From: a virus
Length of the DNA stretch: 64,000 nucleotides
IMG/VR virus record: IMGVR_UViG_3300044641_005643
Direction: 5' to 3' (one strand)
In this document: positions 5,547 through 64,000 of the stretch, piece after piece
Layout: every line of letters starts with the position of its first letter
How positions within the stretch are numbered: position 1 is the first letter of the stretch
Translations under genes and position numbers: made by a program
Notes under the pieces: model-generated
What the model was told of the DNA's origin: nothing
The model's database searches: none
Seen by the model: the letters and a program-made list of their open reading frames with translations, nothing else

Positions 5547-5548
5547 TG

Positions 5549-6495: not shown

Positions 6496-6700
6496 TACCG
6501 TATCCAATTCTTTGTGTGTCCTCTTCCCATTGTAGTCGATTTAGTTTGCTGATTTCATCTTTAAGCAGCAACTTTTTCTTTTTTAATTCTGCTAAATGTT
6601 CTACATCAACTCCTGGATGATTTGTTTGCATTTCGTTTATTTGTTTGTCGAGTAATTTATGCATTTCTTCTAAATGTTTAATTCTACTTTTATAACTCAT
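6488..6700 (-). CDS. DUF465/YdcH-like helical hairpin protein
   Basis: HxxLDxxI...LKKKKLxLKDEI pattern; GGAGGAG RBS. Confidence 0.7.
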   Translation of the reverse strand: MSYKSRIKHLEEMHKLLDKQINEMQTNHPGVDVEHLAELKKKKLLLKDEISKLNRLQWEEDTQRIGYGNE

Positions 6701-6701
6701 A

Positions 6702-46136: not shown

Positions 46137-46836
46137 TTAGTTTTCTCCATAAATTTTGCATACACTCTAGTCTAATTCTGGGATTTTGACTTCCATGGAA
46201 ATGTAAAATAGCTTGATCAAATTTATTATTATTTAATTCGTTTATCATCATGGAATGCCGGGCACCTATTTGTTTAACTACCCACGCTTGCTTTTTTTCC
46301 CAGTTGAAGTTTTTCTGTAACAGCATGATCTGATTGGCAGCGTCCTGATCATAATTAAAAGAATCAAAATTCCAGTTCTTTATTGCAAGATCGTAATTTG
46401 TCCAAAATTCTTCGTCAAGCGTGGCGGGATAATATCTAACACCAGCATTGGCATTTTTTTTGTACCACTCTGTCGCATTAGCGTCAAATATCAGCGGATC
46501 ATCTTCGCTAAACATGCGAAATTCATCAAAATGGCCAAATATATCCAGAGCGTGAACACACAGTGTGTCTGCATTGGTGTATAAAATGTTGCAAGGATAA
46601 TTAGTGTGCCATATTTCTTGAATGGCCCGGGCTGTGTTTATAAAGCACGTATGTATGTTTTCTTGGTCACCAGTAAGTTCAATCAAAGTCCACTCACCGA
46701 GCAAGTTTTTTCTAAAACTTTTTATGCTCAATTGATGCATCAGTTCATATTCGTGGAATGAGTTTTTGAGATCGACGGGCTCACCATTACAAGTATCTAA
46801 AATACAATACAAGTCTTTGACTAGGAAATTACGCAC
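46129..46836 (-). CDS. putative nucleotide-sugar transferase-like protein
   Basis: [21 protein letters not shown] motifs (GT8/GT34-like pattern); start uncertain. Confidence 0.5.
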
Positions 46837-47380
46837 GATCTCCTGCGTAAATCCTTCTGTTCACATATTCCCAATTGATTATGCGCCAAATATTTTGTAG
46901 GTATTTTTTCTTGTCTGTGCCGTAGTCTAATGTCCAGGCATGCTCCCACCAGTCAATCAACAACGCAATATCTGTGCGTATGGCATGATTTTTGATTGTT
47001 TTGATTTGACCGCTGCGGCTCAAGTAAATCCAATTTGAACCTTGCAATTTCATGGCTTCAGCTTCAATATCTTTTTTGAAATCTGTGAAATTACCAAAGT
47101 GTTTGTTAATTAATGCTAGACTAGCACCTGTAGGGCTGTTGCCATTTTTGGGTGGCCTCAACTGCGGAAAGTAGATGTTATGTAAATATGCGCCGGCTTC
47201 ATTGAAGGTGGCATCGCCTTCGCCCTTGTTGTACCTATCCACATAACCACGTGCCAGTTTACCATAATGATTTTCTATTGTGGCTTTGCTTTTAACTGGC
47301 GATAACGCAGTCATTGCATAAGGCAGCTTTTTAAGCTCTAGTTTTTTCTTTTCTTCTAGTAAGTCAATGATATCACGCAT
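46829..47380 (-). CDS. sod: Fe/Mn superoxide dismutase (short form)
   Basis: LPY...L.P, H ligands, DWWEHA signature. Confidence 0.88.
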   Translation of the reverse strand: MRDIIDLLEEKKKLELKKLPYAMTALSPVKSKATIENHYGKLARGYVDRYNKGEGDATFNEAGAYLHNIYFPQLRPPKNGNSPTGASLALINKHFGNFTDFKKDIEAEAMKLQGSNWIYLSRSGQIKTIKNHAIRTDIALLIDWWEHAWTLDYGTDKKKYLQNIWRIINWEYVNRRIYAGDRA

Positions 47381-52041: not shown

Positions 52042-52118
52042 TGGTTGCAGGAGTCAGATTCGAACTGACGATCTCCAGGTTATGAGCCTAGCGGGATGAC
52101 CAACTTCCCTATCCTGCG
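52042..52118 (-). tRNA. tRNA-fMet (CAT)
   Basis: cloverleaf, C1:A72 mismatch, encoded CCA. Confidence 0.9.
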
Positions 52119-52178
52119 ATTGTTTATCTAAAGCGTTTTAGCAATTGCTTGATACGCCATCTAATGTAATAGGGCACT

Positions 52179-52382
52179 TCACGCAACGGAATTGGTAACA
52201 TCTTCGATCCTTTTGTTACGTTTATAAGCAAGATATTCATCAAATGTAATTGGAATCCAACCCATTAATGCTGTAACATATCCCATTAGTGCTAAACTAT
52301 TGTCTGTGTCGTAAGCAGTAAACACATTCCAGATACAAGCAAATACTACAAAAAAAGGCAAACCTACTCGTAGATACTTCAT
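52179..52382 (-). CDS. small membrane protein
   Basis: two TM segments, AAGGAG RBS. Confidence 0.6.
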   Translation of the reverse strand: MKYLRVGLPFFVVFACIWNVFTAYDTDNSLALMGYVTALMGWIPITFDEYLAYKRNKRIEDVTNSVA

Positions 52383-52408
52383 GACACACTCCTTGAAAAA
52401 AATAAATT

Positions 52409-52482
52409 TGGCTACCCCGCACGGATTCGAACCGCGGCTAAGAATTTTGGAGATTCCTGTGCTACCGCTACACTACGGGGTA
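52409..52482 (-). tRNA. tRNA-Trp (CCA)
   Basis: cloverleaf, CCA end. Confidence 0.93.
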
Positions 52483-52502
52483 ATGTCCTTACAATTACTA
52501 AA

Positions 52503-52745
52503 TCAATACTTGTTCAGTCTTTCTCTAATATTATCCATGCTTTCTTGAATGCTTTCGTCCATTTTTAGTCGGCTAAGCATGAGTCCATACATGGTCCAAA
52601 TCAAAAACACACCCAGCAAACCGGCAAAGATCAATGTTGCATCAGCTGCAAAAAAATGAGCCAATGACACAACAACAAATACACCTGCAAAAATTGCAGC
52701 CAACCAACCAACGGTATATAATGCTGCCTTAAGTCTAATATCCAT
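52503..52745 (-). CDS. small membrane protein
   Basis: two TM segments, AGGAG RBS. Confidence 0.65.
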   Translation of the reverse strand: MDIRLKAALYTVGWLAAIFAGVFVVVSLAHFFAADATLIFAGLLGVFLIWTMYGLMLSRLKMDESIQESMDNIRERLNKY

Positions 52746-52801
52746 AAAAAACTCCTAGTTAGTTAATGTACTTGACATTTTACTTGAAGTTCTAATTTGT
52801 G

Positions 52802-53122
52802 TCAATGGTAGTGGCCTTGGAAGCAGTGCCGAACTTCGTGCCCTAGTTCGTGCCCGTTTGGTCGTTTTTTGGTTATGATAGTGCAGACACTGCCTTGCCA
52901 AAAACTACAGGCTTCTACACTAATATTAATGCCCCCGAGCCCTCTACGGCGACTTTCTTGGTCGCATGCCTGATTGATATTGTCCGCATAAATCCAGGTC
53001 AGCTGCACAGTTTCATACTTGTTCTTTTTTGCATCAAACTTGGCCATGGGATCTGCCCACTCTTGAGCCACAGAATTGGTTGCAAAAAAAGCAATTGCAA
53101 AAATAGCAACTAGTTGTTTCAT
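52802..53122 (-). CDS. secreted protein with HExxH zincin-like motif
   Basis: signal peptide; HELGHEVRH; GGAG RBS. Confidence 0.55.
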   Translation of the reverse strand: MKQLVAIFAIAFFATNSVAQEWADPMAKFDAKKNKYETVQLTWIYADNINQACDQESRRRGLGGINISVEACSFWQGSVCTIITKKRPNGHELGHEVRHCFQGHYH

Positions 53123-53152
53123 TCGTAACTCCATGTTTATTAACATACTAGT

Positions 53153-53181
53153 ATTATAGCAAAATGGGTCTTTATGGTCAA
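53153..53181 (-). promoter_or_regulatory. sigma70-type early promoter (near-duplicate of 56782..56810)
   Basis: TTGACC-N17-TATAAT; shared cccattttgcTATAATac core. Confidence 0.75.
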
Positions 53182-53182
53182 C

Positions 53183-53476
53183 TCAAACTTCGTTGCTATC
53201 TTTGTAATATTTCGCCTGCTTGTGCCTGCGTTCTTGCACAGTTTCTTCGCCGAAAAACTTGCGGGGATTGCCGCACATGGCGCACTTGGGATCACCACAA
53301 TTCAAAATCTTGGTTTTGTGATGCCGATGTGGTTGCAGCATAAAAGGCAGTTTGCTCATTGCTGAACTTAATTTATGATAACCGTAGTTTTTAGCTAACT
53401 GTAATTGCCTTTGAATTTTTGTTTCTTTTTGATGGAGTCTTTCACCGTGTTTGATTTTTTCTTGTGCGTCTGACAT
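53183..53476 (-). CDS. basic hypothetical protein with CxxxxCxxC motif
   Basis: CGDPKCAMCGNPRK; AAGGAG RBS. Confidence 0.7.
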   Translation of the reverse strand: MSDAQEKIKHGERLHQKETKIQRQLQLAKNYGYHKLSSAMSKLPFMLQPHRHHKTKILNCGDPKCAMCGNPRKFFGEETVQERRHKQAKYYKDSNEV

Positions 53477-53494
53477 ATGGCTTTCTCCTTGTTT

Positions 53495-53582
53495 TGGCGG
53501 AAGTGGTGGGATTCGAACTCACGGAGCCTTTCAGCTCGACAGTTTTCAAGACTGCTCCAATAGACCACTCTGGCACACTTCC
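53495..53582 (-). tRNA. tRNA-Ser (TGA)
   Basis: long variable arm, G73, CCA. Confidence 0.93.
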
Positions 53583-53583
53583 T

Positions 53584-53820
53584 TTATTTGGACCAGGCCA
53601 GCACAAACAGTGTGCGGTCTTGATCCCATTTAAATGCTACACCTATATTGTATATTGCAGGACAATCGTGATAGGCCCAACGGGCGTATCTGGGACCTAC
53701 AGATTCGCGTAGCCAATCCTCAATCAACAACAAACCGTTGATCCAATCCATTTGATCTGATTGGATTGAGGGCCACGGAATTCGGGCATGATAAGGGAAT
53801 GTGTGCCAATCCACTAACAT
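53584..53820 (-). CDS. hypothetical protein
   Basis: TAAATA-N5-ATG; lies between tRNAs. Confidence 0.6.
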   Translation of the reverse strand: MLVDWHTFPYHARIPWPSIQSDQMDWINGLLLIEDWLRESVGPRYARWAYHDCPAIYNIGVAFKWDQDRTLFVLAWSK

Positions 53821-53831
53821 ACCGATATTTA

Positions 53832-53909
53832 TGGAGCAACGGGCGTGATTCGAACACGCGGTTTTCAGGATTTGCAGTCCCGTGCATTGGGCCTCTCTGC
53901 CACCGTTGC
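53832..53909 (-). tRNA. tRNA-Cys (GCA)
   Basis: cloverleaf, U73, CCA. Confidence 0.9.
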
Positions 53910-53917
53910 ATTAATTT

Positions 53918-54400
53918 TTATTTGACAGGCATTTTTATACCCAGAATCTTACAAACCTTGTTGGCATCTACATCAAAAACATTTTTAACGATGGTATCTA
54001 TGGTTTCTCGATCAAAATCATGAATTGATCTATAAAGCCAAGATAGATTTTTACAGTATCGATTGGCATGAAACCAAATTTCTTCTTGTAGTTCTTGATA
54101 GGTGCGATTGTTGGTACCCCATGGATCAGAACCATTTGGCACCAATCCCCATTCTCGTATTACGAATCTAACAAATGATAAATCTTGATCTAAACAATTT
54201 TGGTACCATTCCTCTCTATATTTTTTGGATTTGTACCAACAATGGTTCCAATTAGGCTTTTGAAGAGTGGCTTCGGTACGATTTTTTGTTCTTAAATATT
54301 CAGCATCACGAATTAGTTCTGGAGTCAAACCCTTTTTGTGTTGTTCTAAAATATTTTGCTTATCTATTGTAATGGCATCATGCAACGACATTGAACGCAT
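53918..54400 (-). CDS. hypothetical protein
   Basis: AAGGA RBS; promoter TTGACC-N17-TATAAT at 54429-54457. Confidence 0.65.
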   Translation of the reverse strand: MRSMSLHDAITIDKQNILEQHKKGLTPELIRDAEYLRTKNRTEATLQKPNWNHCWYKSKKYREEWYQNCLDQDLSFVRFVIREWGLVPNGSDPWGTNNRTYQELQEEIWFHANRYCKNLSWLYRSIHDFDRETIDTIVKNVFDVDANKVCKILGIKMPVK

Positions 54401-54459
54401 AATAATCCTTTAGCTTGATTGAACGAACATTATAATACAACAATCAATTAAGGTCAATC

Positions 54460-54534
54460 TGGTCCGGCGTAGATGAATCGAACACCTATTCTAGAGGTAG
54501 AAGCTCTATGTATTATCCATTATACGAACGCCAG
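54460..54534 (-). tRNA. tRNA-Arg (TCT)
   Basis: cloverleaf, CCA. Confidence 0.9.
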
Positions 54535-54539
54535 AATTT

Positions 54540-54689
54540 TTAACTTGGTATTACCTTGGGTATGTAAGGCACATTTCTCGGACCGTGTCGTTGTTCGAAT
54601 AACATTCGAGCTTCTGTTAAGTCTTTGGCATACACACGGTCCTTGACATCACCTTGGGGTGTTCTTACAGTTGTTTCGTACATGGGCAT
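54540..54689 (-). CDS. 49-aa hypothetical protein
   Basis: MPMYETTVRTPQG...; AGGA RBS; upstream part of the tracked ORF overlaps tRNAs. Confidence 0.6.
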   Translation of the reverse strand: MPMYETTVRTPQGDVKDRVYAKDLTEARMLFEQRHGPRNVPYIPKVIPS

Positions 54690-54708
54690 AACATATTTCC
54701 TATAACAA

Positions 54709-54794
54709 TGGTGGGCCGGGTCGGGCTCGAACCGACATGGCCTTTCGGACTGAATTATGAGTTCAGGGCATCCCACCAATAGTGCTTCCGGCCC
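54709..54794 (-). tRNA. tRNA with CAT anticodon and long variable arm (Ile2-like; identity uncertain)
   Basis: GGGCCGG acceptor, A73, CAT anticodon, variable hairpin CC-GAAA-GG. Confidence 0.75.
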
Positions 54795-54801
54795 ACGAAA
54801 C

Positions 54802-54885
54802 TGGTGCGACTGGTCGGACTCGAACCAACATGCCTTGCGGCGAGGGATTTTAAATCCCTTGAGTATACCATTTCTCCACAGTCGC
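54802..54885 (-). tRNA. tRNA-Leu (TAA)
   Basis: type II cloverleaf, CCA. Confidence 0.93.
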
Positions 54886-54893
54886 AATATACT

Positions 54894-54969
54894 TGGTCTC
54901 CCTAGAAAGATTTGAACTTCCACCGCCTGGTCCCAAACCAGGTACGCTGCCAGATTACGCCATAGGGAG
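54894..54969 (-). tRNA. tRNA-Pro (TGG)
   Basis: cloverleaf, CCA. Confidence 0.92.
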
Positions 54970-54974
54970 TATTA

Positions 54975-55202
54975 CTAATCATCATCCTCGTTGCTATTAA
55001 AGTATGCGACAATTCGACTACGAGCCTCTTCTTCTGTCAAGGCCGGAATGGCCACTGTAGCCAATCCGTTTTTGATTCGGATATCAAACGGAACCACTCC
55101 ATTGGGCATCCAATTTTCTTCCACTGGTACAGTTATGACAAACTCCTTCAAGTTCATCATTCTCGTCAAGACCTCTTTTGTTGTATCGTCAAAATTGGAC
55201 AT
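54975..55202 (-). CDS. hypothetical protein
   Basis: AAGGA RBS. Confidence 0.6.
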   Translation of the reverse strand: MSNFDDTTKEVLTRMMNLKEFVITVPVEENWMPNGVVPFDIRIKNGLATVAIPALTEEEARSRIVAYFNSNEDDD

Positions 55203-55213
55203 ATCTAATCCTT

Positions 55214-55287
55214 TGGTGCCCCTTGACAGAATCGAACTGCCATCAGAGGATTACAAATCCACTGTATTACCATTATACTAAAAGGGC
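55214..55287 (-). tRNA. tRNA-Thr (TGT)
   Basis: cloverleaf, CCA. Confidence 0.92.
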
Positions 55288-55293
55288 CTAACT

Positions 55294-55385
55294 TGGCGGA
55301 GATAGTTGGATTCGAACCAACGGTAGAGTATAATCCCTACGACGGTTTAGCAAACCGCTGCCTTAAGCCTCTCAGCCATATCTCC
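55294..55385 (-). tRNA. tRNA-Ser (GCT)
   Basis: long variable arm, G73, CCA. Confidence 0.93.
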
Positions 55386-55393
55386 TTAATAAC

Positions 55394-55422
55394 ATTATAT
55401 ATGCTGTTTATGGTACTGTCAA
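55394..55422 (-). promoter_or_regulatory. perfect sigma70 promoter for a tRNA block
   Basis: TTGACA-N17-TATAAT just upstream of tRNA-Ser. Confidence 0.8.
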
Positions 55423-55425
55423 TAT

Positions 55426-56028
55426 TTACAAAACAGGACCGTTACCATTTCTAAAGCCTATAGTGCCGCCCTCAGCTTCGATGCGTTTGATCACATCTTC
55501 AAACAAGATAGGAGCGAAGTCAGTTTGTTCTACGCATACACAATGATAGCGTGGGTCGATGCGTTCTCTAACACCCCACTCCATGAACTGCATTGTGGAA
55601 CTGGCTCGCTGCATCACACGGCCACCATGCAAGTGTCCGTGAATATTAACACCAAATCTACCAAGGCTATCTTCGTGCATGGGAATATGACTCAAGATCA
55701 TGCCGTTCATGACATGATATCCACGTACATCGCGGAAATACTTGGTGTATTCCTCTAGTGCAAAGATGTCATGATTACCTTTGATAAGAACTTTGTCTCC
55801 GTTTAGTCTTGCCAGTGTAGGCAAGGCCTTTTTGTTAATCACAACATCACCTAGGTGATACACTTTGTCCGTGGGTCTAACACGCTCGTTCCATAGACGG
55901 ATCATAGCCTCATCCATTTCCTCAGGCGTGTCCCAAGGACGCAGTTTAGTGACACCATCGTTGCGGACAAAACGGCAAACGCCAGCGTGACCAAAATGCG
56001 TGTCACTCGTTAAAAAAGTTGCTGGCAT
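55426..56028 (-). CDS. calcineurin-like metallophosphoesterase
   Basis: SDTHFGH, HLGD, GNHD, HGHLH. Confidence 0.9.
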   Translation of the reverse strand: MPATFLTSDTHFGHAGVCRFVRNDGVTKLRPWDTPEEMDEAMIRLWNERVRPTDKVYHLGDVVINKKALPTLARLNGDKVLIKGNHDIFALEEYTKYFRDVRGYHVMNGMILSHIPMHEDSLGRFGVNIHGHLHGGRVMQRASSTMQFMEWGVRERIDPRYHCVCVEQTDFAPILFEDVIKRIEAEGGTIGFRNGNGPVL

Positions 56029-56042
56029 TTGGTTCTCCTATT

Positions 56043-56264
56043 TTAAGCAATCGCTCCTGCGGCCTCTGCCGCCAATCGTTTAATGGCACGGCCTGCGGCT
56101 TCGCGACTGTTGGTACATGCATAATCGTCGCTCAAACTATTAAAACCGTGATATAACACCCACTCACCATCCCGCAACCATTCTACTCGAATATCGTAGG
56201 CACGTTCAAACGGTGAGCCTTCATGTACGATTCGTACCGGACCCCAATCATGTGCAATATACAT
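56043..56264 (-). CDS. hypothetical protein
   Basis: TAATG coupling with the upstream ORF. Confidence 0.55.
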   Translation of the reverse strand: MYIAHDWGPVRIVHEGSPFERAYDIRVEWLRDGEWVLYHGFNSLSDDYACTNSREAAGRAIKRLAAEAAGAIA

Positions 56265-56422
56265 TATATCACCCCACAAGCTTCATAAAATCGAGACTGA
56301 TCAAATCTTGGATTTGTTCTAGCACAGGTCCGTGCCATGGCCTCGGCTACCATAACTCTAGTTTCTAAGTCTTGAATCTTTGCAATTGTTTCAGCAATCG
56401 CTTCAAAATCTTTTCTAGTCAT
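56264..56422 (-). CDS. 52-aa hypothetical protein
   Basis: MTRKDFEAIA...NPRFDQSRFYEAC; AAGGAGG RBS; not in the ORF track. Confidence 0.7.
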   Translation of the reverse strand: MTRKDFEAIAETIAKIQDLETRVMVAEAMARTCARTNPRFDQSRFYEACGVI

Positions 56423-56431
56423 ACGGCCTCC

Positions 56432-56752
56432 TTATGCTAGTTCAAGTTCTCGGGCAGGAAAAGTAATCTTACCTTCGTACTCGAGCTGATCGCGCTCAAA
56501 ATCAGTAAGGTAATCATCCTCGACAACAGACCAATCAACTATGTGCTCGCGCACATAATCGTTATCCGATTCAACCTTTGGCCGCACCAGATCTACTACA
56601 ATACCAGGGGCATAACGAGTAGGGTCAAAGTTGCGAATTACATAATCGCTGCCGCCTTTGGCCTTCCAGTAAGCATCATCGCCCTTGCCAATGGAACCAT
56701 CTTCGTTCCATGCGTAGTTTTCGTAAACTTGGGTAGTGATAAGTAGCTTCAT
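56432..56752 (-). CDS. conserved early hypothetical protein
   Basis: TQ..ENY...YWK.KGG motif; AGGAG RBS. Confidence 0.7.
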   Translation of the reverse strand: MKLLITTQVYENYAWNEDGSIGKGDDAYWKAKGGSDYVIRNFDPTRYAPGIVVDLVRPKVESDNDYVREHIVDWSVVEDDYLTDFERDQLEYEGKITFPARELELA

Positions 56753-56781
56753 TTTTGGCTCCTGTTAATTACTATACTCGT

Positions 56782-56877
56782 ATTATAGCAAAATGGGCCA
56801 TTATGGTCTATCATTTGTTTTAGTTGCAAGAATAGCAACACTTGTTGCTATATTCGTAATGTTGCTCAAAAGCAACA
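56782..56877 (-). promoter_or_regulatory. early promoter with upstream palindromic operator-like repeats
   Basis: TAGACC-N17-TATAAT; GTTGC-N6/7-GCAAC repeats at 56822-56877. Confidence 0.6.
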
Positions 56878-56883
56878 GTTGAG

Positions 56884-56957
56884 TGGAGCGGGATATCGGA
56901 ATCGAACCGATGACTAGAGCTTGGAAGGCTTTCGTTTTACCATTAAACTAATCCCGC
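56884..56957 (-). tRNA. tRNA-Gly (TCC)
   Basis: cloverleaf, U73, CCA. Confidence 0.93.
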
Positions 56958-56966
56958 ATTTAAACT

Positions 56967-57041
56967 TGGCGGTCCCAACGGGAGTCGAACCCGTCTCTGC
57001 GCCGTGACAGGGCGCCATACTTACCGATATACTATAGGACC
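56967..57041 (-). tRNA. tRNA-Asp (GTC)
   Basis: cloverleaf, G73, CCA. Confidence 0.93.
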
Positions 57042-57046
57042 TTGTC

Positions 57047-57123
57047 TGGCTCCGAGAATAGGAATCGAACCTATCTGATGAACGGATTAACAGTCCGCTG
57101 CCCCACCTTGTGGCCGTCTCGGA
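57047..57123 (-). tRNA. tRNA-Asn (GTT)
   Basis: cloverleaf, G73, CCA. Confidence 0.88.
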
Positions 57124-57130
57124 ATAATAC

Positions 57131-57205
57131 TGGTGGGCGGTGAGAGATTCGAACTCCCGACCCGTTCCGTGTAAAGGAACTCTTCTACCGCTGAAATAAC
57201 CGCCC
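57131..57205 (-). tRNA. tRNA-Val (TAC)
   Basis: cloverleaf, CCA. Confidence 0.93.
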
Positions 57206-57207
57206 GA

Positions 57208-57492
57208 TCAAATATATCTATCTATGTTCATACCAATGGCGCTGGCACGTTGCACCAGCCGCTGTTCTTTAATACTTTCGCCAAATGCATACTGCCTTAG
57301 GAATTCTGTGTCTTTGTCATAGTTGTAATTTCGTTGCAGTCTGTTAGCTTCTTGTATGGCCATGAGATTGGCCATTTCTCTTATCTTGTGTTCTTCAATG
57401 TCGCGACGCTTCATGTCCATGAGCACTTGCACTCGCTGACCAATCATTTGGTAATCATTTAAATATGCATGTGGTACTCGATATATAACCAT
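57208..57492 (-). CDS. hypothetical protein
   Basis: AGGAG RBS before MVIYR. Confidence 0.6.
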   Translation of the reverse strand: MVIYRVPHAYLNDYQMIGQRVQVLMDMKRRDIEEHKIREMANLMAIQEANRLQRNYNYDKDTEFLRQYAFGESIKEQRLVQRASAIGMNIDRYI

Positions 57493-57505
57493 ATTTGCTC
57501 CTGAT

Positions 57506-57590
57506 TGGTGGGGATGGAAGGATTCGCACCTACTCACCCGAAAGAACGGATTTACAGTCCGCCGCCACTCTCTAACTTAGCCGCATCCCC
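57506..57590 (-). tRNA. tRNA-Tyr (GTA)
   Basis: type II, CCA; atypical T-loop TGCGAAT. Confidence 0.85.
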
Positions 57591-57599
57591 ATTTAATTT

Positions 57600-57675
57600 T
57601 GGTGGAGGTGGACGGTTACGATCCGACTGCCTCCTGCTTGCAAAGCAGGCGCTCTCCCAATTGAGCTACACCCCC
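57600..57675 (-). tRNA. tRNA-Ala (TGC)
   Basis: G3:U70, CCA; T-loop ATCGTAA. Confidence 0.92.
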
Positions 57676-57678
57676 TGA

Positions 57679-57930
57679 TTAATTTTCTCTAACGTCTTTG
57701 GCATCAACACAAGTTTCACCTTTGAACACATATACATCGCTATCAACTCTGAGTTGTTCAAATACTTGATTATTCACACATATAAATGGATCTTTGTGAT
57801 TTTCCATATAAAAGAATACTCCATAACCAATACCCGCCAATACCATTAGAATGGGGATATATTTTAGATACTTTACAATTTCGGGCATGGCACCCAAAAT
57901 TTGTGGCAAGTTTTTGAGCAGTTCTTTCAT
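57679..57930 (-). CDS. membrane-anchored hypothetical protein
   Basis: TAAATA-N5-ATG; one TM segment. Confidence 0.6.
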   Translation of the reverse strand: MKELLKNLPQILGAMPEIVKYLKYIPILMVLAGIGYGVFFYMENHKDPFICVNNQVFEQLRVDSDVYVFKGETCVDAKDVREN

Positions 57931-57943
57931 GCTCGTATTTATG

Positions 57944-58018
57944 TGGCACACCGTAGGAGAATCGAACTCCTCTTACCTGCGTGAAAGGCGGGTGTCCTAA
58001 CCGATAGACGAACGGTGC
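57944..58018 (-). tRNA. tRNA-Glu (TTC)
   Basis: cloverleaf, CCA. Confidence 0.92.
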
Positions 58019-58029
58019 ATAAAATTTAA

Positions 58030-58330
58030 TGCTAACAAGGAACTGACTGTTACATGATGCCGAAGTCATTACTGCATCAAACCCTTGCTGAACCCGCATT
58101 GCGGGACGATTCGCACTCAATCGTTTTTGATCTAAATCTTGCTTAGGCCACGCTTTTCCACAGTCGCCCCTATGCTGGAGTTGTTACCCTGTCCATCCCA
58201 TTTATTCTCGTGTCTGTGTGCAGTTGGGATTCTGCCTAGCAGTGTCTGAGGGGTTGCCTCGCTAACGGTTTACTGCCACCGGGTCAATTATCGTCGCCAC
58301 ACGCTACTTTCAGGAAAGTAGTAACCGGAA
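58030..58330 (-). ncRNA. candidate structured ncRNA(s) inside the tRNA array
   Basis: about 300 nt without a credible ORF; many stems and a possible AUCCCA/UGGGAU pseudoknot. Confidence 0.5.
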
Positions 58331-58331
58331 A

Positions 58332-58412
58332 CCATATTGAAACACACTCAATACTCTTATACGCCCGTGCCTTGCAAGCCGTTAAAATATAAGCGAATGT
58401 GTTTTAATATGG
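58332..58412 (-). repeat. long imperfect inverted repeat directly 3' of tRNA-Leu
   Basis: ccatattgaaacacactc / gaatgtgttttaatatgg plus inner cttata/tataag. Confidence 0.7.
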
Positions 58413-58494
58413 TGCGGATGAAAGGAATCGAACCTTCACGTATTTCTACGCTAGAACCTAAATCTAGTGCGTCTACCTATTTCGCCACATCCGC
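58410..58494 (-). tRNA. tRNA-Leu (TAG)
   Basis: type II cloverleaf, CCA. Confidence 0.93.
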
Positions 58495-58539
58495 ATTTAC
58501 TGCTCAATTGTTAATGAACGTTTACTACACTATTTCATT

Positions 58540-58568
58540 ATTATAGCAATTTGTTCATTTTAGGTCTA
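58540..58568 (-). promoter_or_regulatory. sigma70-type promoter
   Basis: TAGACC-N17-TATAAT with extended -10 TG. Confidence 0.65.
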
Positions 58569-58615
58569 CTATTATGTGTGTTGTATTTTAGCCACACAGT
58601 TGCTATTTTGTTAAC

Positions 58616-58691
58616 TGGTAGTAGAGGAGGGACTCGAACCCACGATACGCACCGTATGAAGGTGCTGCATTGGCCGCTATGCTACTCTACC
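58616..58691 (-). tRNA. tRNA-Met (CAT), elongator-type
   Basis: cloverleaf, paired 1:72, CCA. Confidence 0.85.
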
Positions 58692-58692
58692 G

Positions 58693-58769
58693 TGGTACCC
58701 ACTCTTGGAATTGAACCAAGGACCCCAACCTTATCAAGATTGTGCTCTCACCAACTGAGCTAAGTGGGC
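58693..58769 (-). tRNA. tRNA-Ile (GAT)
   Basis: cloverleaf, CCA. Confidence 0.92.
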
Positions 58770-58775
58770 ATAAAC

Positions 58776-58850
58776 TGGCCGGTCCTGACAGATTCGAACT
58801 GCCGACAGCTGGTTTCGAAGACCAGAACTCTTCCGCTGAACTAAGGACCG
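58776..58850 (-). tRNA. tRNA-Arg (TCG)
   Basis: cloverleaf, CCA. Confidence 0.9.
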
Positions 58851-58852
58851 TA

Positions 58853-58928
58853 TGGGGTATCCGACCGGTATCGATCCGGTACTACCTGTTTCACAGACAA
58901 GTGTGCAGGCCACTACACTACGGACACC
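58853..58928 (-). tRNA. tRNA-His (GTG)
   Basis: G-1:C73, CCA; T-loop ATCGATA. Confidence 0.92.
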
Positions 58929-58933
58929 ACGGG

Positions 58934-59004
58934 CAGGGATACTAGGATTTGAACCTAGACTAACAGAGTCAAAGTCTGCGGTGCTGCCGTTACACTATAT
59001 CCCA
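58934..59004 (-). tRNA. tRNA-Gln (TTG)
   Basis: cloverleaf, U1:U72, G73; no encoded CCA (reads CCC). Confidence 0.88.
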
Positions 59005-59011
59005 ACTGAAC

Positions 59012-59593
59012 TTATAAATTTCCTAATAATCTTTTTGCTCTTTCATAATTATTACCTTTTGCTGCAATACCTGCTTTCAATAAGCCTTGCCGTATATTAG
59101 GCGATTCATTTATGCACTCAAGTAAAAACTCATCAGTTATATCATTAGCACCGTTCTTAGCAGGTTTATTTCTGCCTCTCCAAGTATCTGTGATACTATG
59201 ACAATTTGGACATAATCCTTCTAAGTTTTCTCTAGTATTGTTTTGATTATTGCCATCCTTATGCTCTAACTCCAGGACAATCTTAAATCCCTGCCACTCA
59301 CTAATACCGCAACAATTACAACGATGTTCTTGTTCTTCAAACACTCTACGGCGTTTATTTTCCATTCCAAGTTCTTCAAACGGAGTCGCTAGGTACTTTT
59401 GAAGTCTAGTTTCTCTTAGTTTTTGTGCTGCTTTTTCCCTATCATAGGGAGTTTGTTTAGAAGGTTTTCCTTTTAGTGCTAAACTTTTTTTAAGTTTTGC
59501 TTCTTCTGAGAATACTCTACTGTTAGCACATGTTCTTGAACAATACACTCCTACTTTTGTATGTTCTTTATTGCATTTAGGACATTGTTTCAT
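59012..59593 (-). CDS. HNH homing endonuclease (free-standing, in the tRNA array)
   Basis: N-terminal CxxC...CSxxC zinc finger; LEHKDGN..NN..ENL..LCPNCH. Confidence 0.9.
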   Translation of the reverse strand: MKQCPKCNKEHTKVGVYCSRTCANSRVFSEEAKLKKSLALKGKPSKQTPYDREKAAQKLRETRLQKYLATPFEELGMENKRRRVFEEQEHRCNCCGISEWQGFKIVLELEHKDGNNQNNTRENLEGLCPNCHSITDTWRGRNKPAKNGANDITDEFLLECINESPNIRQGLLKAGIAAKGNNYERAKRLLGNL

Positions 59594-59647
59594 ATCGAAC
59601 CTTGTTAAATATAACTTTATTTATCTAAGTTCGATATGAAACAATGT
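59582..59647 (-). promoter_or_regulatory. translation-blocking hairpin with a late promoter in its loop
   Basis: perfect 19-bp inverted repeat covering the HNH ATG; TAAATA at 59618-59623. Confidence 0.75.
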
Positions 59648-59650
59648 AAA

Positions 59651-59725
59651 TGGTGAGGGCAGAGAATTACGATATCTCGACCTACTGGTTAAAAGCCAGT
59701 TGCTCTTCCTCTGAGCTATGCCCCC
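59651..59725 (-). tRNA. tRNA-Lys (TTT)
   Basis: cloverleaf, CCA; T-loop ATCGTAA. Confidence 0.9.
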
Positions 59726-59941
59726 ATTCGAATTCCATATAGTTGGAACATCAATGCTGCTAATTTATGCTTGTTTTGATATGTCCAACCATATCGTAGC
59801 AAGCCCTTCTTGACACTGTCCATGACAGGATCTCCTCTAAAACTGTAATGTACTACTTCGATGAATTTTTGTCAAGCCATAATAACAAAACAAATACTCC
59901 TAATACAACTGTCACAGCCCCATTTTGTTTCCTCCTCGAAG

Positions 59942-60118
59942 TTATTTTAACGGAATACAACCCGCGCTAGTTCTATAATTTTCAATGCGAATAGTTTTTA
60001 CTGCTTGTTCTCGGGCTCTCATACAAGTTTCATAATCATTGTACTTCGCCGTAATACTACCACTGCTAGTCGTGGTACCGGGGGTAGCACTGAACAATGA
60101 AATTACTAGTATCCACAT
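59942..60118 (-). CDS. small secreted or membrane protein
   Basis: AAGGAG RBS before MWILVISL; Cys pair; pattern similar to 51040..51237. Confidence 0.6.
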   Translation of the reverse strand: MWILVISLFSATPGTTTSSGSITAKYNDYETCMRAREQAVKTIRIENYRTSAGCIPLK

Positions 60119-60177
60119 ATAGTCTCCTTTAAATAAATCTATAATTTTTAACAAATACAACAAAGTTAAATATCTTA

Positions 60178-60813
60178 ATGTATGCCACCATTACAAAAGA
60201 AAAATTTTTATCAGAAGCAGAAATAAATTTTATTGTTAATGATATCTATAATAATGGTTTTCATTATAATGACATAGTTGATAATAAATTACACAGTTTT
60301 TATAAACCATGGCGATATTACAATAAAAATTTTGAACTTATAAAGAACATTCTAGATCCAAAATTGAAAGAAATTTTGGACTATGATTTCGTCATTGATC
60401 ACAGTCATATGCTAGACAGTCACGTACCCTATAGTATTCACACAGATTATTGGCAAGTAAAAAACTTTAGGCAATTAGAGCCGGCTCACTCAATTATAAT
60501 TCCATTAGACAATTACAATTCGAATACAGTAATTTTTAATGAAAACTCAAAAATCAAAAGACTAGATGAATACATAAACCAAGAAAATCCTCAGCGTAAT
60601 ATCACAAAAATCTCAACAGACCTCGTAAAAAATTACCTTTCTCATATAGATAAAGATCTATTAGATTATCTATCAATAAAAGAAATTTTAAAATGGAACA
60701 AAGGTTGCCTTATTGCATTTGATAGAAAATATTTTCATTGTAGTGACAATTATTCTGCCAACGGTTTAAGTGGCAAAAAAGCCTTGATTTTATGGACTTC
60801 AACAAAAATTTAA
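60178..60813 (+). CDS. putative 2OG-Fe(II) oxygenase-like protein
   Basis: HTD...YFHC pattern; AT-rich; TAAATA-N5-ATG. Confidence 0.5.
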   Translation: MYATITKEKFLSEAEINFIVNDIYNNGFHYNDIVDNKLHSFYKPWRYYNKNFELIKNILDPKLKEILDYDFVIDHSHMLDSHVPYSIHTDYWQVKNFRQLEPAHSIIIPLDNYNSNTVIFNENSKIKRLDEYINQENPQRNITKISTDLVKNYLSHIDKDLLDYLSIKEILKWNKGCLIAFDRKYFHCSDNYSANGLSGKKALILWTSTKI

Positions 60814-60822
60814 AAATTTATA

Positions 60823-60896
60823 TGGAGCAGGATACCAGAGTCGAACTGGTGACTGGACGTTGGCAACGTGCCGTTTTACCCCTAAACTAATCCTGC
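60823..60896 (-). tRNA. tRNA-Gly (GCC)
   Basis: cloverleaf, U73, CCA. Confidence 0.92.
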
Positions 60897-60904
60897 TTTG
60901 TTCT

Positions 60905-60999
60905 TGGTAGTAGGCCAGGGATTCGAACCCTGTCGTTCCAGCCCATCTGACCAGTCTCCACGGTTTATAAGTCCGCGCCGCATACCAATGCTGCCTACC
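60905..60999 (-). tRNA. non-canonical tRNA(-like) RNA, TAT anticodon (Ile)
   Basis: acceptor stem, T arm and CCA normal; 4-nt D loop, very long variable region. Confidence 0.65.
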
Positions 61000-61080
61000 A
61001 TTCGCACACTCTGAATACAAAGTGTATGATTGAACAGACTATTTTATGTAAAATGCAAAAAAATAAAAATAAATATAAAC

Positions 61081-61857
61081 ATGAATAAAACCCAGTTTTT
61101 ATCAATAAATCAGCATGTAATCAAAGATAAAATAGTTTTAGACTTGGCTTGTCATATTGGAGTTAGCACAAAAATTATTCAAGATTTAGGTGCAAAATAT
61201 GTTTATGGTCTCGAAGGTCGAGAAAATTTAGTGCAAACTGCTCTACAAAGTGTCAATGGTAATGTCGAATTTATCGTAGGAGACATGACAGATAGTGCAG
61301 TTATTCTTCCATTGGTTAAAAAAAGCCAGACCATAGTCTGTATAGGATCATTATATCATTTATATGATCATTTCAGATTTTTCCAATATATTTTCCAACC
61401 ACATGTGGAATACTGTATTATAAGTACTTTGTTCGGGCCAGAATCAATTAATCCAGAAATGTGGTGGGGTTTCGAAAACACTCATGATATCCATAACGGG
61501 TTTTACAAAAATTTACCTATTATCCCACATGGCACTCCCAATCTTTCCTGGATTCTAAATTCAGCAAAAATTTTTGGATTTGAATGTGATTGGATACACT
61601 GTTATGGCAAAAAAGTGACCAAAGCAATTTCCCAAATCACAGTAGAGGAATATTTAAGTGTAGCTGGAGACGATTGGCCTCCGTATGAAGATATAATAAG
61701 TGGTCAAAAACTTCCTGTTTTTGTACAGCAAGAGCTTGATCAAATGTTACATGATTATCCTTCTGAAGATCGCAGAATGATCTTGAGACTATATAATTCC
61801 AAGCTAATCAAATCCAAACCAATACAATTAAAAGAAAATTATAAATGGCCGTTTTGA
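61081..61857 (+). CDS. class I SAM-dependent methyltransferase
   Basis: VLDLACHIG motif I, GLEGR, GSLYH; TAAATA-N5-ATG at 61081. Confidence 0.75.
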   Translation: MNKTQFLSINQHVIKDKIVLDLACHIGVSTKIIQDLGAKYVYGLEGRENLVQTALQSVNGNVEFIVGDMTDSAVILPLVKKSQTIVCIGSLYHLYDHFRFFQYIFQPHVEYCIISTLFGPESINPEMWWGFENTHDIHNGFYKNLPIIPHGTPNLSWILNSAKIFGFECDWIHCYGKKVTKAISQITVEEYLSVAGDDWPPYEDIISGQKLPVFVQQELDQMLHDYPSEDRRMILRLYNSKLIKSKPIQLKENYKWPF

Positions 61858-61884
61858 ATTACACAGATTTAGATAAATTAGTAT

Positions 61885-62070
61885 CAGACTAGTTGCTACG
61901 GTGATAGCAGTGGCCGCGGTCAATGCGGGTGGGATTACAAGCCCCCAAATGCTCTTCTAATCTGCTCAATCATTCCCGTTTTACTCAGCTGTTACCGCCA
62001 GCAGTTTCATCAGGGGCTCCGCCCGTTTGGCATGTTCGAGTGCTGCCGCGGCCTCGTTCCGCATTCACTT
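61885..62070 (-). ncRNA. candidate pseudoknotted ncRNA
   Basis: AAUGCGG/CCGCAUU and GGCCGCGG/CCGCGGCC long-range stems in crossing order; GC-rich, non-coding. Confidence 0.5.
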
Positions 62071-62072
62071 TG

Positions 62073-62237
62073 CTACTTGTGTCGTCGAGTTAGACGCAAT
62101 TTTTCTAATTGTTCTGATTGCTCGCGCAATCTTTGCATTTTACCTTTTAACAATTCTTCAAGCAATCTATCGTTAAAAACAAAATCACGTTCTTCTAACT
62201 TTTTTTGAAACGACACGATGTCTTGTTCGTTTGTCAT
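62073..62237 (-). CDS. 54-aa charged helical protein downstream of the attenuator
   Basis: MTNEQDIVSFQKKLEERDF...; AAGGTGGAG upstream; not in the ORF track. Confidence 0.5.
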   Translation of the reverse strand: MTNEQDIVSFQKKLEERDFVFNDRLLEELLKGKMQRLREQSEQLEKLRLTRRHK

Positions 62238-62250
62238 CTCCACCTTTATA

Positions 62251-62286
62251 AAACAAAAACCCCAGGGTTTTGATTCCTGGGGTTTT
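62251..62286 (-). terminator. attenuator terminator
   Basis: AAACCCCAGG-loop-CCUGGGGUUUUUGUUUU. Confidence 0.85.
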
Positions 62287-62308
62287 ATAGAATTTAGTTC
62301 TACTACAC

Positions 62309-62422
62309 TTAGGTTCTATATTTCCCCAGCACACGATTACTATCACGTGTAATCATACCCCAGTAGGCCACTTGCCCCGATTCGGGTTGTATAAACGCTT
62401 TATGTAATAGTGCGGAGTTCAT
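62309..62422 (-). CDS. 37-aa putative leader peptide
   Basis: MNSALLHKAFIQPESGQVAYWGMITRDSNRVLGKYRT*, between a promoter and a terminator; last codons form the antiterminator arm. Confidence 0.6.
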   Translation of the reverse strand: MNSALLHKAFIQPESGQVAYWGMITRDSNRVLGKYRT

Positions 62423-62432
62423 TATAGTCTCT

Positions 62433-62461
62433 ATTGTAGTTTTATTTATGTTTGTTGTCAA
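62433..62461 (-). promoter_or_regulatory. sigma70 promoter with an embedded TAAATA late-type motif
   Basis: TTGACA-N17-TACAAT; spacer contains ATAAATA. Confidence 0.75.
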
Positions 62462-62549
62462 TAGATATTTTTCCAAATTTTGTTGCTTTTCTGTTAATTA
62501 ACAAACAATTAACGATTTGGTTTTGAAGTCACGATTGGTAAATAATTAT

Positions 62550-63032
62550 ATGTTAAAACACATTCATCACATCGTTCCTAAGTATATGGGAGGAACTGAC
62601 GATCCGTCAAATCTTGTGGAACTCACAGTAGAAGAACACGCCGAGGCTCACAGATTGTTATATGAGCAGCACGGAAATTGGCAAGACAGAATAGCTTGGT
62701 TATCACTAAGCGGACAAATTGGAAAAGATGAAGCTATACAAGAGGCCAGAGGTGCTGCTAATCGTGGAAGAAAAAGAACACCAGAACAATTAGAAAATAT
62801 GCGTAAAGCATCAAAAGCAAGAGCAGAACGACATATGTCTGATCCTGAGTTTTGGGCTGAGATTAATAGAAAAAGATCAGAATCACATAAAGGTAAGAAA
62901 AAATCCGCAGAGCATATGGCAAATTGGGCTGCTTCTCGTAAAGGACATGTAGTGTCAGAAGAAACACGAGAAAAAATTAGAAAAACACTTTCTGAAACTA
63001 GAGCCAAAAAGAAAGCCCTACTCGAGGGCTAA
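62550..63032 (+). CDS. HNH endonuclease with NUMOD3-like DNA-binding repeats
   Basis: HHIVPK..GG.DD..NL..LT..EH...H; KGKKKS.EH and SEETREKI repeats; TAAATA-N5-ATG. Confidence 0.88.
   Translation: MLKHIHHIVPKYMGGTDDPSNLVELTVEEHAEAHRLLYEQHGNWQDRIAWLSLSGQIGKDEAIQEARGAANRGRKRTPEQLENMRKASKARAERHMSDPEFWAEINRKRSESHKGKKKSAEHMANWAASRKGHVVSEETREKIRKTLSETRAKKKALLEG
63006..63030 (-). terminator. probable terminator after pqqA
   Basis: AGCCCU-loop-AGGGCU followed by UUCUUUUU. Confidence 0.55.
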
Positions 63033-63051
63033 CTTTTGAATAAACTTTATA

Positions 63052-63126
63052 TTAGCGGTTAGCAATATAAAGGGTAATCTCGAAGCCGAAACGCATATCG
63101 TTTGCTTGTGGTGTAGTCCATGCCAT
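63052..63126 (-). CDS. pqqA: pyrroloquinoline quinone precursor peptide PqqA
   Basis: MAWTTPQANDMRFGFEITLYIANR*: W-x-x-P, R-F-G-F-E-x-x-x-Y; AAGGAG RBS 8 nt upstream; not in the ORF track. Confidence 0.95.
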   Translation of the reverse strand: MAWTTPQANDMRFGFEITLYIANR

Positions 63127-63238
63127 TTTTATTTCTCCTTGAAAAAATAACATACTGCATTAGTATGTATCTCTATTGTAAGACAAATCTGGCACAAACC
63201 ACATCCATACAGTCATGATTTTACGCTACGTAAAATCA

Positions 63239-64000
63239 TTAGCCTTTTTTGAACTTGGCAGCTTCTTCACTGCCGCCGGTGGCATTGCCCTTGCTGTAAC
63301 TATGAGCACCAACACCAGCCAGCTGTCCATTTTGCACAACCAGGTATTCGTTACGAATTGGACGTCCTTCAAACCAGCACTCCAACACTTCACGCACACC
63401 TGCTGCATATCTGGTTTGAGCACTTAGACTGGTGCCAGATATGTGTGGTGTCATGCCATGATTGGGCATGCTACGCCAAGGATGATCCTGTGGTGCCGGT
63501 TGTGGGAACCATACATCACCAGCATAGCCTGCCAGCTGACCAGTTTCCAGTGCTCGAGCCACAGCATCACGATCGCAGATTTTACCTCTAGCAGTATTCA
63601 CAATATAGCTACCACGTTTCATCTTGCTGATCATGGCTTCATCGAACAGGTGTTCGGTTTCGGGATGCAATGGGCAGTTGATGGTCACAATATCTACCAC
63701 CTTGACCATGCTTTCCACACTGTCGTGCCAGGTCAAGTTCAATTCCTGTTCCACCAGCTCAGGCAAACGATGACGATCATAATAGTGCAAATGCACACCA
63801 AATGGCTTTAACAATCTCAGTGCTCGCAGACCAATTCTACCAGCTGCCACTGTGCCCACATGCATGCCTTCGATGTCATAGCTGCGTGTAACGCAATCGG
63901 CGATGTTCCAGCCGCCGTTGATCACTTGTTGATAACTGGGAATATAATTTCTTACCAGACTCAACATCTGCATCACAATGTGCTCGGCCACCGAATTACT
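63239..64000 (-). CDS. fdh: NAD-dependent formate dehydrogenase (5' end outside the window)
   Basis: VAEH, GGWNIADC, AAGRIG, YDRH, NTARG, WFPQPAP.DHPWR, PHISGTSLSAQ.RYAAG. Confidence 0.95.
   Translation of the reverse strand, partial: SNSVAEHIVMQMLSLVRNYIPSYQQVINGGWNIADCVTRSYDIEGMHVGTVAAGRIGLRALRLLKPFGVHLHYYDRHRLPELVEQELNLTWHDSVESMVKVVDIVTINCPLHPETEHLFDEAMISKMKRGSYIVNTARGKICDRDAVARALETGQLAGYAGDVWFPQPAPQDHPWRSMPNHGMTPHISGTSLSAQTRYAAGVREVLECWFEGRPIRNEYLVVQNGQLAGVGAHSYSKGNATGGSEEAAKFKKG

Follow-up and report, generated by a model that had tools for sequence, protein, structure and literature searches.

Phages of methane and methanol oxidizers are known to carry pmoC, methanol dehydrogenase and pqqA, the last of which encodes a short precursor peptide of ≈20–40 residues, PqqA, whose Glu-x3-Tyr pair becomes pyrroloquinoline quinone (PQQ). 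PqqA was previously described, together with methanol dehydrogenase, in the T4-like Lake Baikal phages VP_266 and VP_139, which were predicted to infect Methylophilaceae; formate dehydrogenase was not mentioned in that study (Coutinho et al. 2020, Microbiome 8:163, PMC7678222). Here, we analyzed a 64,000-nt stretch of viral DNA (IMG/VR record IMGVR_UViG_3300044641_005643), referred to as the window, in which a pqqA gene lies next to a gene (fdh) for an NAD+-dependent formate dehydrogenase (FDH). Positions and strands refer to the window unless another contig, designated by an L number, is named. An earlier, sequence-only reading of this DNA had taken the two genes to form one module for one-carbon (C1) oxidation, while allowing that viral pqqA might have been noted before, as it indeed had been in the Baikal phages. 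The reading that we prefer, with a probability of roughly 0.6, is that pqqA and fdh are two separate auxiliary genes that reside in a plastic tRNA/HNH region of a jumbo phage and together sustain C1 oxidation in the host.

The pqqA gene (63052–63126, minus strand) consists of 24 codons and a stop codon and encodes the peptide MAWTTPQANDMRFGFEITLYIANR, in which the Glu-x3-Tyr pair is present as Glu16-Ile-Thr-Leu-Tyr20. The peptide scored 36.7 bits against PF08042 (cut-off 21.1) and 35.7 bits against TIGR02107 (cut-off 20), while a search of solved structures with the 24 residues gave no match. The corresponding peptides of two related contigs differ from it by one residue (L298) and by four residues (L002). 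A Shine-Dalgarno sequence, AAGGAG (63135–63140, minus strand), was read 8 nt before the ATG, and AAGGAG or AGGAG is found at the corresponding place in all of the cassettes compared below. Downstream of the gene, a hairpin scan found an intrinsic-terminator-like structure (63004–63030, minus strand), made up of the hairpin AGCCCT-cgagt-AGGGCT (63030–63014) and the tract TTCTTTTTGG, which falls within the 3' end of a convergent HNH endonuclease gene. The PqqA call, which had been made from the ExxxY motif, a ribosome-binding site and a terminator, is thus confirmed by two curated cut-offs, the AAGGAG and the hairpin with its T tract. The 112-nt spacer between fdh and pqqA also agrees with the coordinates of the FDH stop (63239) and the pqqA ATG (63126).

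The window contains the 3' part of fdh (63239–64000, minus strand; NF005750, EC 1.17.1.9), comprising 253 codons and a stop codon at 63239–63241, and stops short of the initial ≈147 codons. This fragment scored 428.8 bits against NCBIfam NF005750 (cut-off 329), over profile positions 148–385 of 386. Intactness, of which the gene had given the appearance in the sequence-only reading, cannot be read from such a fragment, but three database proteins of 400 residues (P0002–P0004) were reported to be 100% identical over the 253 visible residues. For P0003, identity of residues 148–400 was confirmed residue by residue. Both Pfam domains are present in the identical proteins, and P0003 aligns without gaps over residues 1–399 to the crystallized Moraxella FDH (2gsd; E = 4e-222). 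FDHs from 11 related viral contigs are 399–400 residues long. The gene is therefore very probably whole in the window phage, with its own 5' part lying beyond the window. The fragment retains the AAGRIG dinucleotide fold, the Asp of YYDRH, which is the residue that sets NAD+ preference, the Arg of NTARG, the Gln of QPAP and the His of TPHISG. P0003 additionally retains the substrate-channel PF motif, GIGSDH and CNS; the Asn of the last motif is one residue past the window end. The protein is predicted to be an NAD+-specific, metal-independent enzyme that would oxidize formate to CO2 with production of NADH.

Comparison of the DNA around pqqA in the window, L298, L002, L003, L006, L180, L234, L283 and other contigs revealed a common order of elements: a palindromic box, an ATGGATG/−10-like box, an inverted repeat, a U-rich tract, AAGGAG, pqqA and a terminator. 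The first of these, found by hairpin scan and not assigned to a strand, is a perfect 11-bp palindrome (ATGATTTTACG, 3 nt, CGTAAAATCAT; 63215–63239) that abuts the FDH stop and is made of AAAATCAT half-sites. The minus strand lacks a T tract after the palindrome, which excludes a role as fdh terminator. Words resembling AAAATCATGA occur at an equal distance upstream of pqqA in L002, L298, L234, L283 and others. The palindrome, with which the cassette opens, is thus a candidate site for protein binding. It is followed by a promoter-like stretch (63175–63208, minus strand), in which an ATGGATG box (63208–63202) is separated by 21 nt from a −10-like TACAAT (63180–63175). A sigma-70 scan did not call this stretch; we infer a promoter role from the conserved layout, ATGGATG-N21-(T/C)A(C/T)AAT, which is common to L002 and L298.

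The leader contains the inverted repeat ACATACT-aatgc-AGTATGT (63150–63168, minus strand), identified by comparison and followed by the U-rich tract (63149–63141). The repeat is conserved in L298, L003, L180 and L283, and its letters are identical in most copies. Pairing is kept with other letters in L002 (ACATATACT/AGTATATGT, in which both arms are longer by the same two bases) and in L006 (ACATGT/ACATGT). In a set of 113 distinct cassettes with viral pqqA, the folding energy of the 50-nt leader is −7.0 kcal/mol, compared to −4.1 kcal/mol for shuffled sequences, and that of the 60 nt downstream of the gene is −14.4 kcal/mol, compared to −7.8 kcal/mol. A stable hairpin is present within 60 nt downstream in ≈80% of these cassettes and in 18% of the shuffled controls. 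The leader repeat could form a 5' hairpin in the RNA, stabilizing a short, heavily used mRNA, or could equally well act at the DNA level, as a binding site for a protein dimer at a position overlapping the start of transcription.

The same cassette is found in other places in relatives of the window phage: after a tRNA-Arg gene in L002, inside a tRNA array in L006, and in L180. Three more jumbo contigs have it no farther than 45 nt from a tRNA gene. With a promoter-like box, leader hairpin and terminator of its own, and given its relocation in relatives, pqqA is therefore a self-contained cassette and is predicted to be its own, independently moving transcription unit. Since there is no minus-strand stop to read-through from fdh, co-transcription is possible, though not required. 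The window itself contains an array of 25 tRNA genes (52042–60896, ARAGORN), all on the minus strand, like fdh and pqqA. Homologous arrays adjoin fdh in L002, L004 and L006, and in related contigs with 27 (L002) and 12 (L006) tRNA genes, fdh and pqqA lie in or beside the arrays. The HNH gene that converges on pqqA (62517–63032, plus strand; PF01844, 22.8 bits) is missing at the corresponding place in L298, whose homology to the window extends no farther than pqqA. We considered whether phage pqqA generally rides in tRNA arrays, and rejected this idea: a tRNA gene lies within 300 nt in only 3 of 119 viral loci, and the association holds only for this jumbo lineage and for the phage Melnitz.

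GC content is 0.49 across fdh and 0.40 for the whole window, the FDH is 83–84% identical to bacterial enzymes, and the other side of fdh is outside the window, all of which might suggest that this end of the contig is host DNA, either misassembled onto a phage or recently picked up and not under selection. Several observations make this explanation very improbable. L298, an independent metagenome contig of 3.8 kb, contains an FDH that is 94% identical in amino acid sequence, the 112-nt spacer and pqqA, with 86% nucleotide identity over 946 nt; the junction is therefore real in an independent assembly. The sequence-only reading had suggested phylogeny as a check on the origin of the FDH, and the trees (FastTree and IQ-TREE) placed it with 11 viral contigs and one bacterial sequence at 98% support, in what is otherwise a viral clade. 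Members of this clade lie beside phage tRNA arrays and, in L009, ≈830 nt downstream of the Gp23 major capsid gene. Between fdh and its relatives, dN is 0.07–0.10 and dS is saturated, with a ratio of ≈0.06 where dS could be computed, and GC at third codon positions (GC3) is 0.31–0.53 in phage fdh, compared to 0.60–0.72 in Methylobacter and Methylopumilus, i.e., shifted toward phage values. Thus, fdh has long been resident in phages under purifying selection. The pqqA cassette, for its part, is common to the tRNA arrays of other jumbo phages. Misassembled host DNA, which the sequence-only reading had named as the outcome that would count against it, is largely refuted by the L298 junction, the Gp23 neighbor and the low dN/dS. 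Phage genes and tRNAs flank the pair on one side in the window, and relatives show both sides, with the Gp23 gene of L009 as an example; by these patterns, both genes are phage-borne auxiliary metabolic genes, with fdh maintained by selection. At least 116 contigs in IMG/VR carry a relative of the window FDH.

The DNA upstream of fdh could be viewed in relatives. In L298 (156–1884), it encodes rubrerythrin, DUF3501, a GDSL-like protein and a small DUF2061-like membrane protein, and the corresponding stretch of L002 (3168–4185) retains two of these, DUF3501 and the GDSL-like gene, with their order unchanged. Genes of the L298 type are our best guess for the content beyond position 64000, the continuation of which was not found by exact-word search of IMG/VR and metagenome contigs. 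Together with a superoxide dismutase in the window (see below), these genes suggest an oxidative-stress gene set. On the downstream side, the closest IMG/VR relative, L001 (11796–14168), encodes two more metabolic enzymes of host type, a class II aldolase and an FMN-dependent alpha-hydroxyacid dehydrogenase. Permuted (two-piece) tmRNA genes, detected with ARAGORN, start at the very end of fdh in L004 (8981–9364), L006 (10735–11118) and L007 (8175–8660), and occupy the place that is held by pqqA in the window.

Spacing between the two genes varies within the clade. In the window, L298 (112 nt) and L003 (111 nt), pqqA follows fdh after 111–112 nt, while in L002 and L006 the two are ≈9 kb apart, across or within tRNA arrays. 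The idea of a fixed module did not survive this comparison, given the separate signals of pqqA, the ≈9-kb separation and the many carriers of one gene that lack its partner. Indeed, the adjacency might be incidental: two pieces of independent cargo could have landed in the same recombination-prone tRNA/HNH region, with the FDH serving general formate/NADH housekeeping and not methylotrophy. For example, FDH could remove formate released by a phage GTP cyclohydrolase I (7-deazaguanine pathway) or by peptide deformylation. Such an explanation would account for the independent movement of pqqA with its own signals, for fdh flanks that vary within the clade (a capsid gene; aldolase and FMN-dependent dehydrogenase; tmRNA; rubrerythrin and DUF3501), and for a 96%-complete relative that has pqqA without fdh. 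It would also account for 69 viral contigs with an FDH of the Pelagibacteraceae/SAR86 type; among the fdh-bearing viral contigs from these other clades, pqqA was found above cut-off in none of the 47 that were searched. (These 69 contigs, L012–L080, are from IMG/VR; 56 fall in a purely viral clade, and many are fragments of phages of ≈140–360 kb by CheckV.)

Incidental adjacency is less easily reconciled with a second occurrence of the pair. The viral contig L192 (IMGVR_UViG_3300030202_003475, 4160–7488; 45 kb, 34% GC) has genes for cytochrome c, pqqA and fdh one after another on a single strand, with 72 nt between the latter two and a gene for Fe–S cluster assembly (IscA/ErpA-like) nearby. 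The L192 FDH is 70% identical to that of the window and pairs with L079, its sister, in the second of the two major clades, which the trees separate with 100% support. With the order reversed and an FDH of separate origin, the juxtaposition of fdh and pqqA therefore arose at least twice. By a rough reckoning, a 350-kb genome offers a chance of ≈1 in 1000 that no more than 200 nt separate two given genes. Furthermore, pqqA is present in five contigs of the window FDH clade (window, L298, L002, L003 and L006), as opposed to the zero of 47 in the other viral clades. Considering both sides, we regard incidental adjacency as unlikely, though a serious contender. Nor was the arrangement simply copied from a common host operon, since, among 80 bacterial fdh loci, pqqA occurs within 6 kb only in Methyloceanibacter. 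A survey of viral genomes for linkage, proposed with the sequence-only reading, gave a divided answer: the pairing does recur (L298, L003 and L192), but most pqqA phages lack fdh and vice versa; fdh was absent from all five large pqqA-bearing contigs. The linkage thus appears to be loose yet not random, and it is plausible that two independently mobile helper genes were brought together by selection more than once. As had been surmised, the pairing with FDH, which recurs independently in L192, is the less familiar aspect of the locus.

For processing of the peptide, the phage would depend on the host. None of pqqB–E was found among the window open reading frames (ORFs) scanned. The 96%-complete relative, a 356-kb contig that carries pqqA, yielded neither fdh nor PqqC nor methanol dehydrogenase; its sole match to PqqE was a weak, generic radical-SAM one of 22 bits (cut-off 381). 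The PqqC search recovered the gene in two Methylobacter genomes and in Methylopumilus, which served as positive controls. The peptide is therefore usable only by the PQQ pathway of the host, in line with the earlier proposal that the phage relies on host PqqB–E. The window pqqA does not lead a pqqBCDE operon, but neither do the orphan copies of Methylopumilus, in which pqqA and pqqC are on different contigs, so the operon-head position is usual, not obligatory. A radical SAM gene at 368–1396 was considered as a possible PqqE and rejected, as it matches only the generic Radical_SAM domain.

Related genes occur in cultured phages, which speaks for a link with methylotrophs. A complete pqqA is present in nine GenBank records of Methylophilales phages (four of Melnitz, plus Venkman, MEP301, MEP401, MEP402 and P19250A), where it is either unannotated or overlapped solely by an annotated "hypothetical protein". 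Examples are MZ577097 (Melnitz, 76134–76205, plus strand), KX815270 (P19250A, 28085–28153, minus strand), MT375522 (9977–10045, minus strand) and MW452941 (3316–3384, minus strand); the gene is also found in OP830906 and OP830907. A Manatee Spring podovirus (MW202481, 2116–2190) likewise has a complete copy with an ATG and a ribosome-binding site; in this phage and in Melnitz, the overlapping "hypothetical protein" is on the opposite strand. Neither the Melnitz paper nor the MEP401/402 paper mentions pqqA as a phage gene. The PqqA of P19250A is identical to that of Methylopumilus, while the window variant, which ends in EITLYIANR, is identical at 14 of 22 positions to the Methylopumilus and Methylobacter peptides alike.

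The divergent wording of the window peptide raises the question of whether it is a PQQ precursor at all. It might instead act as a decoy that ties up host PqqD and PqqE, or be converted to another product by phage radical SAM enzymes, for which the Radical_SAM match at 368–1396 would be a candidate; a wording (EIT-x-YIANR) not found in the host groups sampled would fit either role. The peptide nevertheless keeps the full PqqA signature, including the Glu and Tyr, and exceeds both curated cut-offs, and cultured methylophages encode peptides that match host PqqA completely or almost so, as expected of a usable substrate. No PqqD-like or PqqE-like partner was found in the 96%-complete relative. 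A decoy or an alternative product therefore seems improbable.

Returning to the reading of two separate genes that jointly support C1 oxidation, a number of observations weigh against it. Among viral pqqA loci, only one of 120 has fdh nearby; conversely, none of 50 other fdh-bearing viral contigs has pqqA, and the gene was not seen in the parts examined of L001, L007–L009 and L010. Methylotrophy itself is not marked in the phage genes: neither methanol dehydrogenase nor pmoC was found in eight contigs of the clade (the pmoC search being one without a positive control). The EIT-x-YIANR wording is absent from the 301 Methylococcales and 301 Methylophilaceae genomes searched, and the best bacterial FDH matches, to Methylobacter (84%) and a Methylophilaceae bacterium (83%), do not discriminate between these groups. 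Lastly, one member of the "phage" FDH clade is chromosomal, in a genome that has no PqqC. We consider the most likely host to be a methylotroph or methanotroph from the Beta- or Gammaproteobacteria whose cells can accommodate a phage of 350–400 kb.

The chromosomal FDH is that of L087 (5560–6759; SYEK01000003.1), from a 1.3-Mb metagenome-assembled genome labelled as Actinomycetota, and is 89% identical to the window FDH. One neighbor of its gene is gyrA, in a flank that also encodes DciA and GyrB; the other is a cyclophilin gene, in a flank that further encodes a rhomboid protease, a glutamine amidotransferase, a PASTA kinase and a PP2C phosphatase. We considered the possibility that L087 was a mis-binned phage contig, but the neighbors (DciA, GyrB, GyrA, PPIase, PknB and PP2C) are those of a real actinobacterial chromosome. 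None of 30 relatives of this genome has an NAD-FDH. A singleton nested among phage sequences suggests horizontal transfer that involved the phage lineage, possibly from phage to bacterium.

Full-text literature searches, which covered main texts, found no paper that describes NAD-FDH as a phage gene, and a large marine survey of auxiliary metabolic genes does not mention formate. Among GenBank phages, FDH-like matches were all below 60% identity and in doubtful records, none of them in a methylophage. Phage pqqA is already known; phage FDH, although present in databases, seems to be unreported in the literature.

The data above establish what the genes are, that they reside in a phage, that purifying selection acts, how the cassette is built and that the pairing recurs; we infer expression, use of the peptide by the host, a physiological benefit and the kind of host, as follows. 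The pqqA cassette, proceeding from palindromic box to promoter-like element, leader hairpin, strong ribosome-binding site, gene and terminator, is probably strongly expressed. The peptide would be consumed by host PqqB–E and converted to PQQ, keeping up the supply for periplasmic PQQ-dependent dehydrogenases, such as methanol dehydrogenase, as host transcription declines. The phage FDH would convert formate to CO2 and NADH, the last, energy-yielding step of C1 dissimilation. Jointly, the two would maintain C1-derived reducing power in an infected methylotroph or other PQQ-using proteobacterium. A methylotrophic host in which both ends of methanol oxidation are boosted, as proposed in the sequence-only reading, would fit this scheme.

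A broader reading can be put forward more tentatively, at somewhat short of even odds. NAD-FDH may represent a widespread and undescribed class of phage auxiliary genes (no fewer than 116 contigs of IMG/VR, forming two clades of separate acquisition) that was joined to pqqA in phages of methylotrophs at least twice independently, once with cytochrome c. In that case, infected cells would direct C1 carbon to CO2 and NADH over biomass, and the FDH lineage would also have passed into a streamlined freshwater actinobacterium. With a phage FDH, the final step of C1 oxidation, the one that yields NADH, would also come under viral control, and infection could alter the share of methane- and methanol-derived carbon that leaves lakes as CO2. 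The pqqA gene, though too short for gene callers and unannotated even in cultured methylophages, is a cheap marker of phages with PQQ-using hosts.

The remainder of the window is in keeping with the phage-like flank that was noticed originally. We assign the DNA to a giant, uncultured lake phage, a jumbo phage with a genome of roughly 350–400 kb, a size derived from the CheckV completeness values of related contigs. The DNA polymerase, of the T4-type family B, is nearest to those of jumbo phages of 350–490 kb; its closest match is in Sinorhizobium phage Phosso (51%), followed by Atu_ph07, Vibrio phage 2.275.O and the Yersinia/Serratia/Erwinia giants. Besides the 25 tRNA and HNH genes, the window encodes a Clp-like ATPase, PhoH, a clamp loader, DnaJ and methyltransferases, as well as an Fe/Mn superoxide dismutase (46829–47380). 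Megablast of the window against GenBank phages gave no match. In the 59000–64000 region, an Rfam search returned only tRNAs and sub-threshold matches. One of the latter is a tRNA-Sec-like match (60908–61000, minus strand; 32 bits, gathering score 47) that adjoins tRNA-Gly(GCC) and was not called by ARAGORN; this could reflect either chance or an unusual tRNA with a long arm. A GC-rich stretch of ≈220 nt (61880–62100), between a methyltransferase gene and a small ORF (62073–62243), contained no convincing ORF and had no Rfam match.

Compared to known systems, the window phage most resembles the Lake Baikal phages in having an orphan pqqA in a large T4-type freshwater phage with a GC content of ≈35–40%, and in that pqqA has been read in both cases as an aid to host C1 oxidation by way of host PQQ biosynthesis. 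Unlike in those phages, no methanol dehydrogenase was found in the window or in the eight clade contigs; by its polymerase, the window phage belongs to the 350–490-kb jumbo group, and the wording of its PqqA differs from the Methylophilaceae type. (A methanol dehydrogenase is found on another pqqA-bearing viral contig, the 72-kb L223, which has a PQQ-dependent methanol/ethanol-type dehydrogenase at G663:C1:34049–35731, in a frame of 628 residues with 608 bits, and thereby fits the type described in PMC7678222.) The cultured Methylophilales phages share with the window a complete pqqA of ≈23–24 codons with an ATG and a ribosome-binding site. In Melnitz, the gene ends 13 nt before a tRNA-Leu gene, resembling the pqqA genes in or beside the tRNA arrays of the window lineage. 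The peptides of these phages are, however, of the host type, TEMRFGFEVTMYVMNK, unlike that of the window.

L192, a marine cassette, resembles the window in having pqqA and NAD-FDH on one strand of a viral contig, 72 nt apart, but differs in its reversed gene order, in an FDH of the Pelagibacteraceae/SAR86-type clade and in having a cytochrome c and an Fe–S assembly gene, neither of which was seen in the window. In Methyloceanibacter (L105, 8740–9167; L132, 3228–3317), one or two pqqA genes lie ≈2 kb downstream of NAD-FDH on a methylotroph chromosome; unlike the window, these loci are non-viral, have wider spacing and encode a 29-residue peptide of the alphaproteobacterial type. A metagenome contig, L305 (10740–11168), has near-identical peptides to those of Methyloceanibacter, with pqqA again ≈2 kb downstream of NAD-FDH. 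The FDH itself shares its substrate and NAD motifs with the bacterial enzymes of known structure from Moraxella sp. C-1 (2gsd) and Pseudomonas sp. 101 (2nac and 2nad). Unlike those enzymes, the window FDH is encoded by a phage, has a codon composition that is shifted toward that of phages, and belongs to a clade of viral contigs with a single actinobacterial member.

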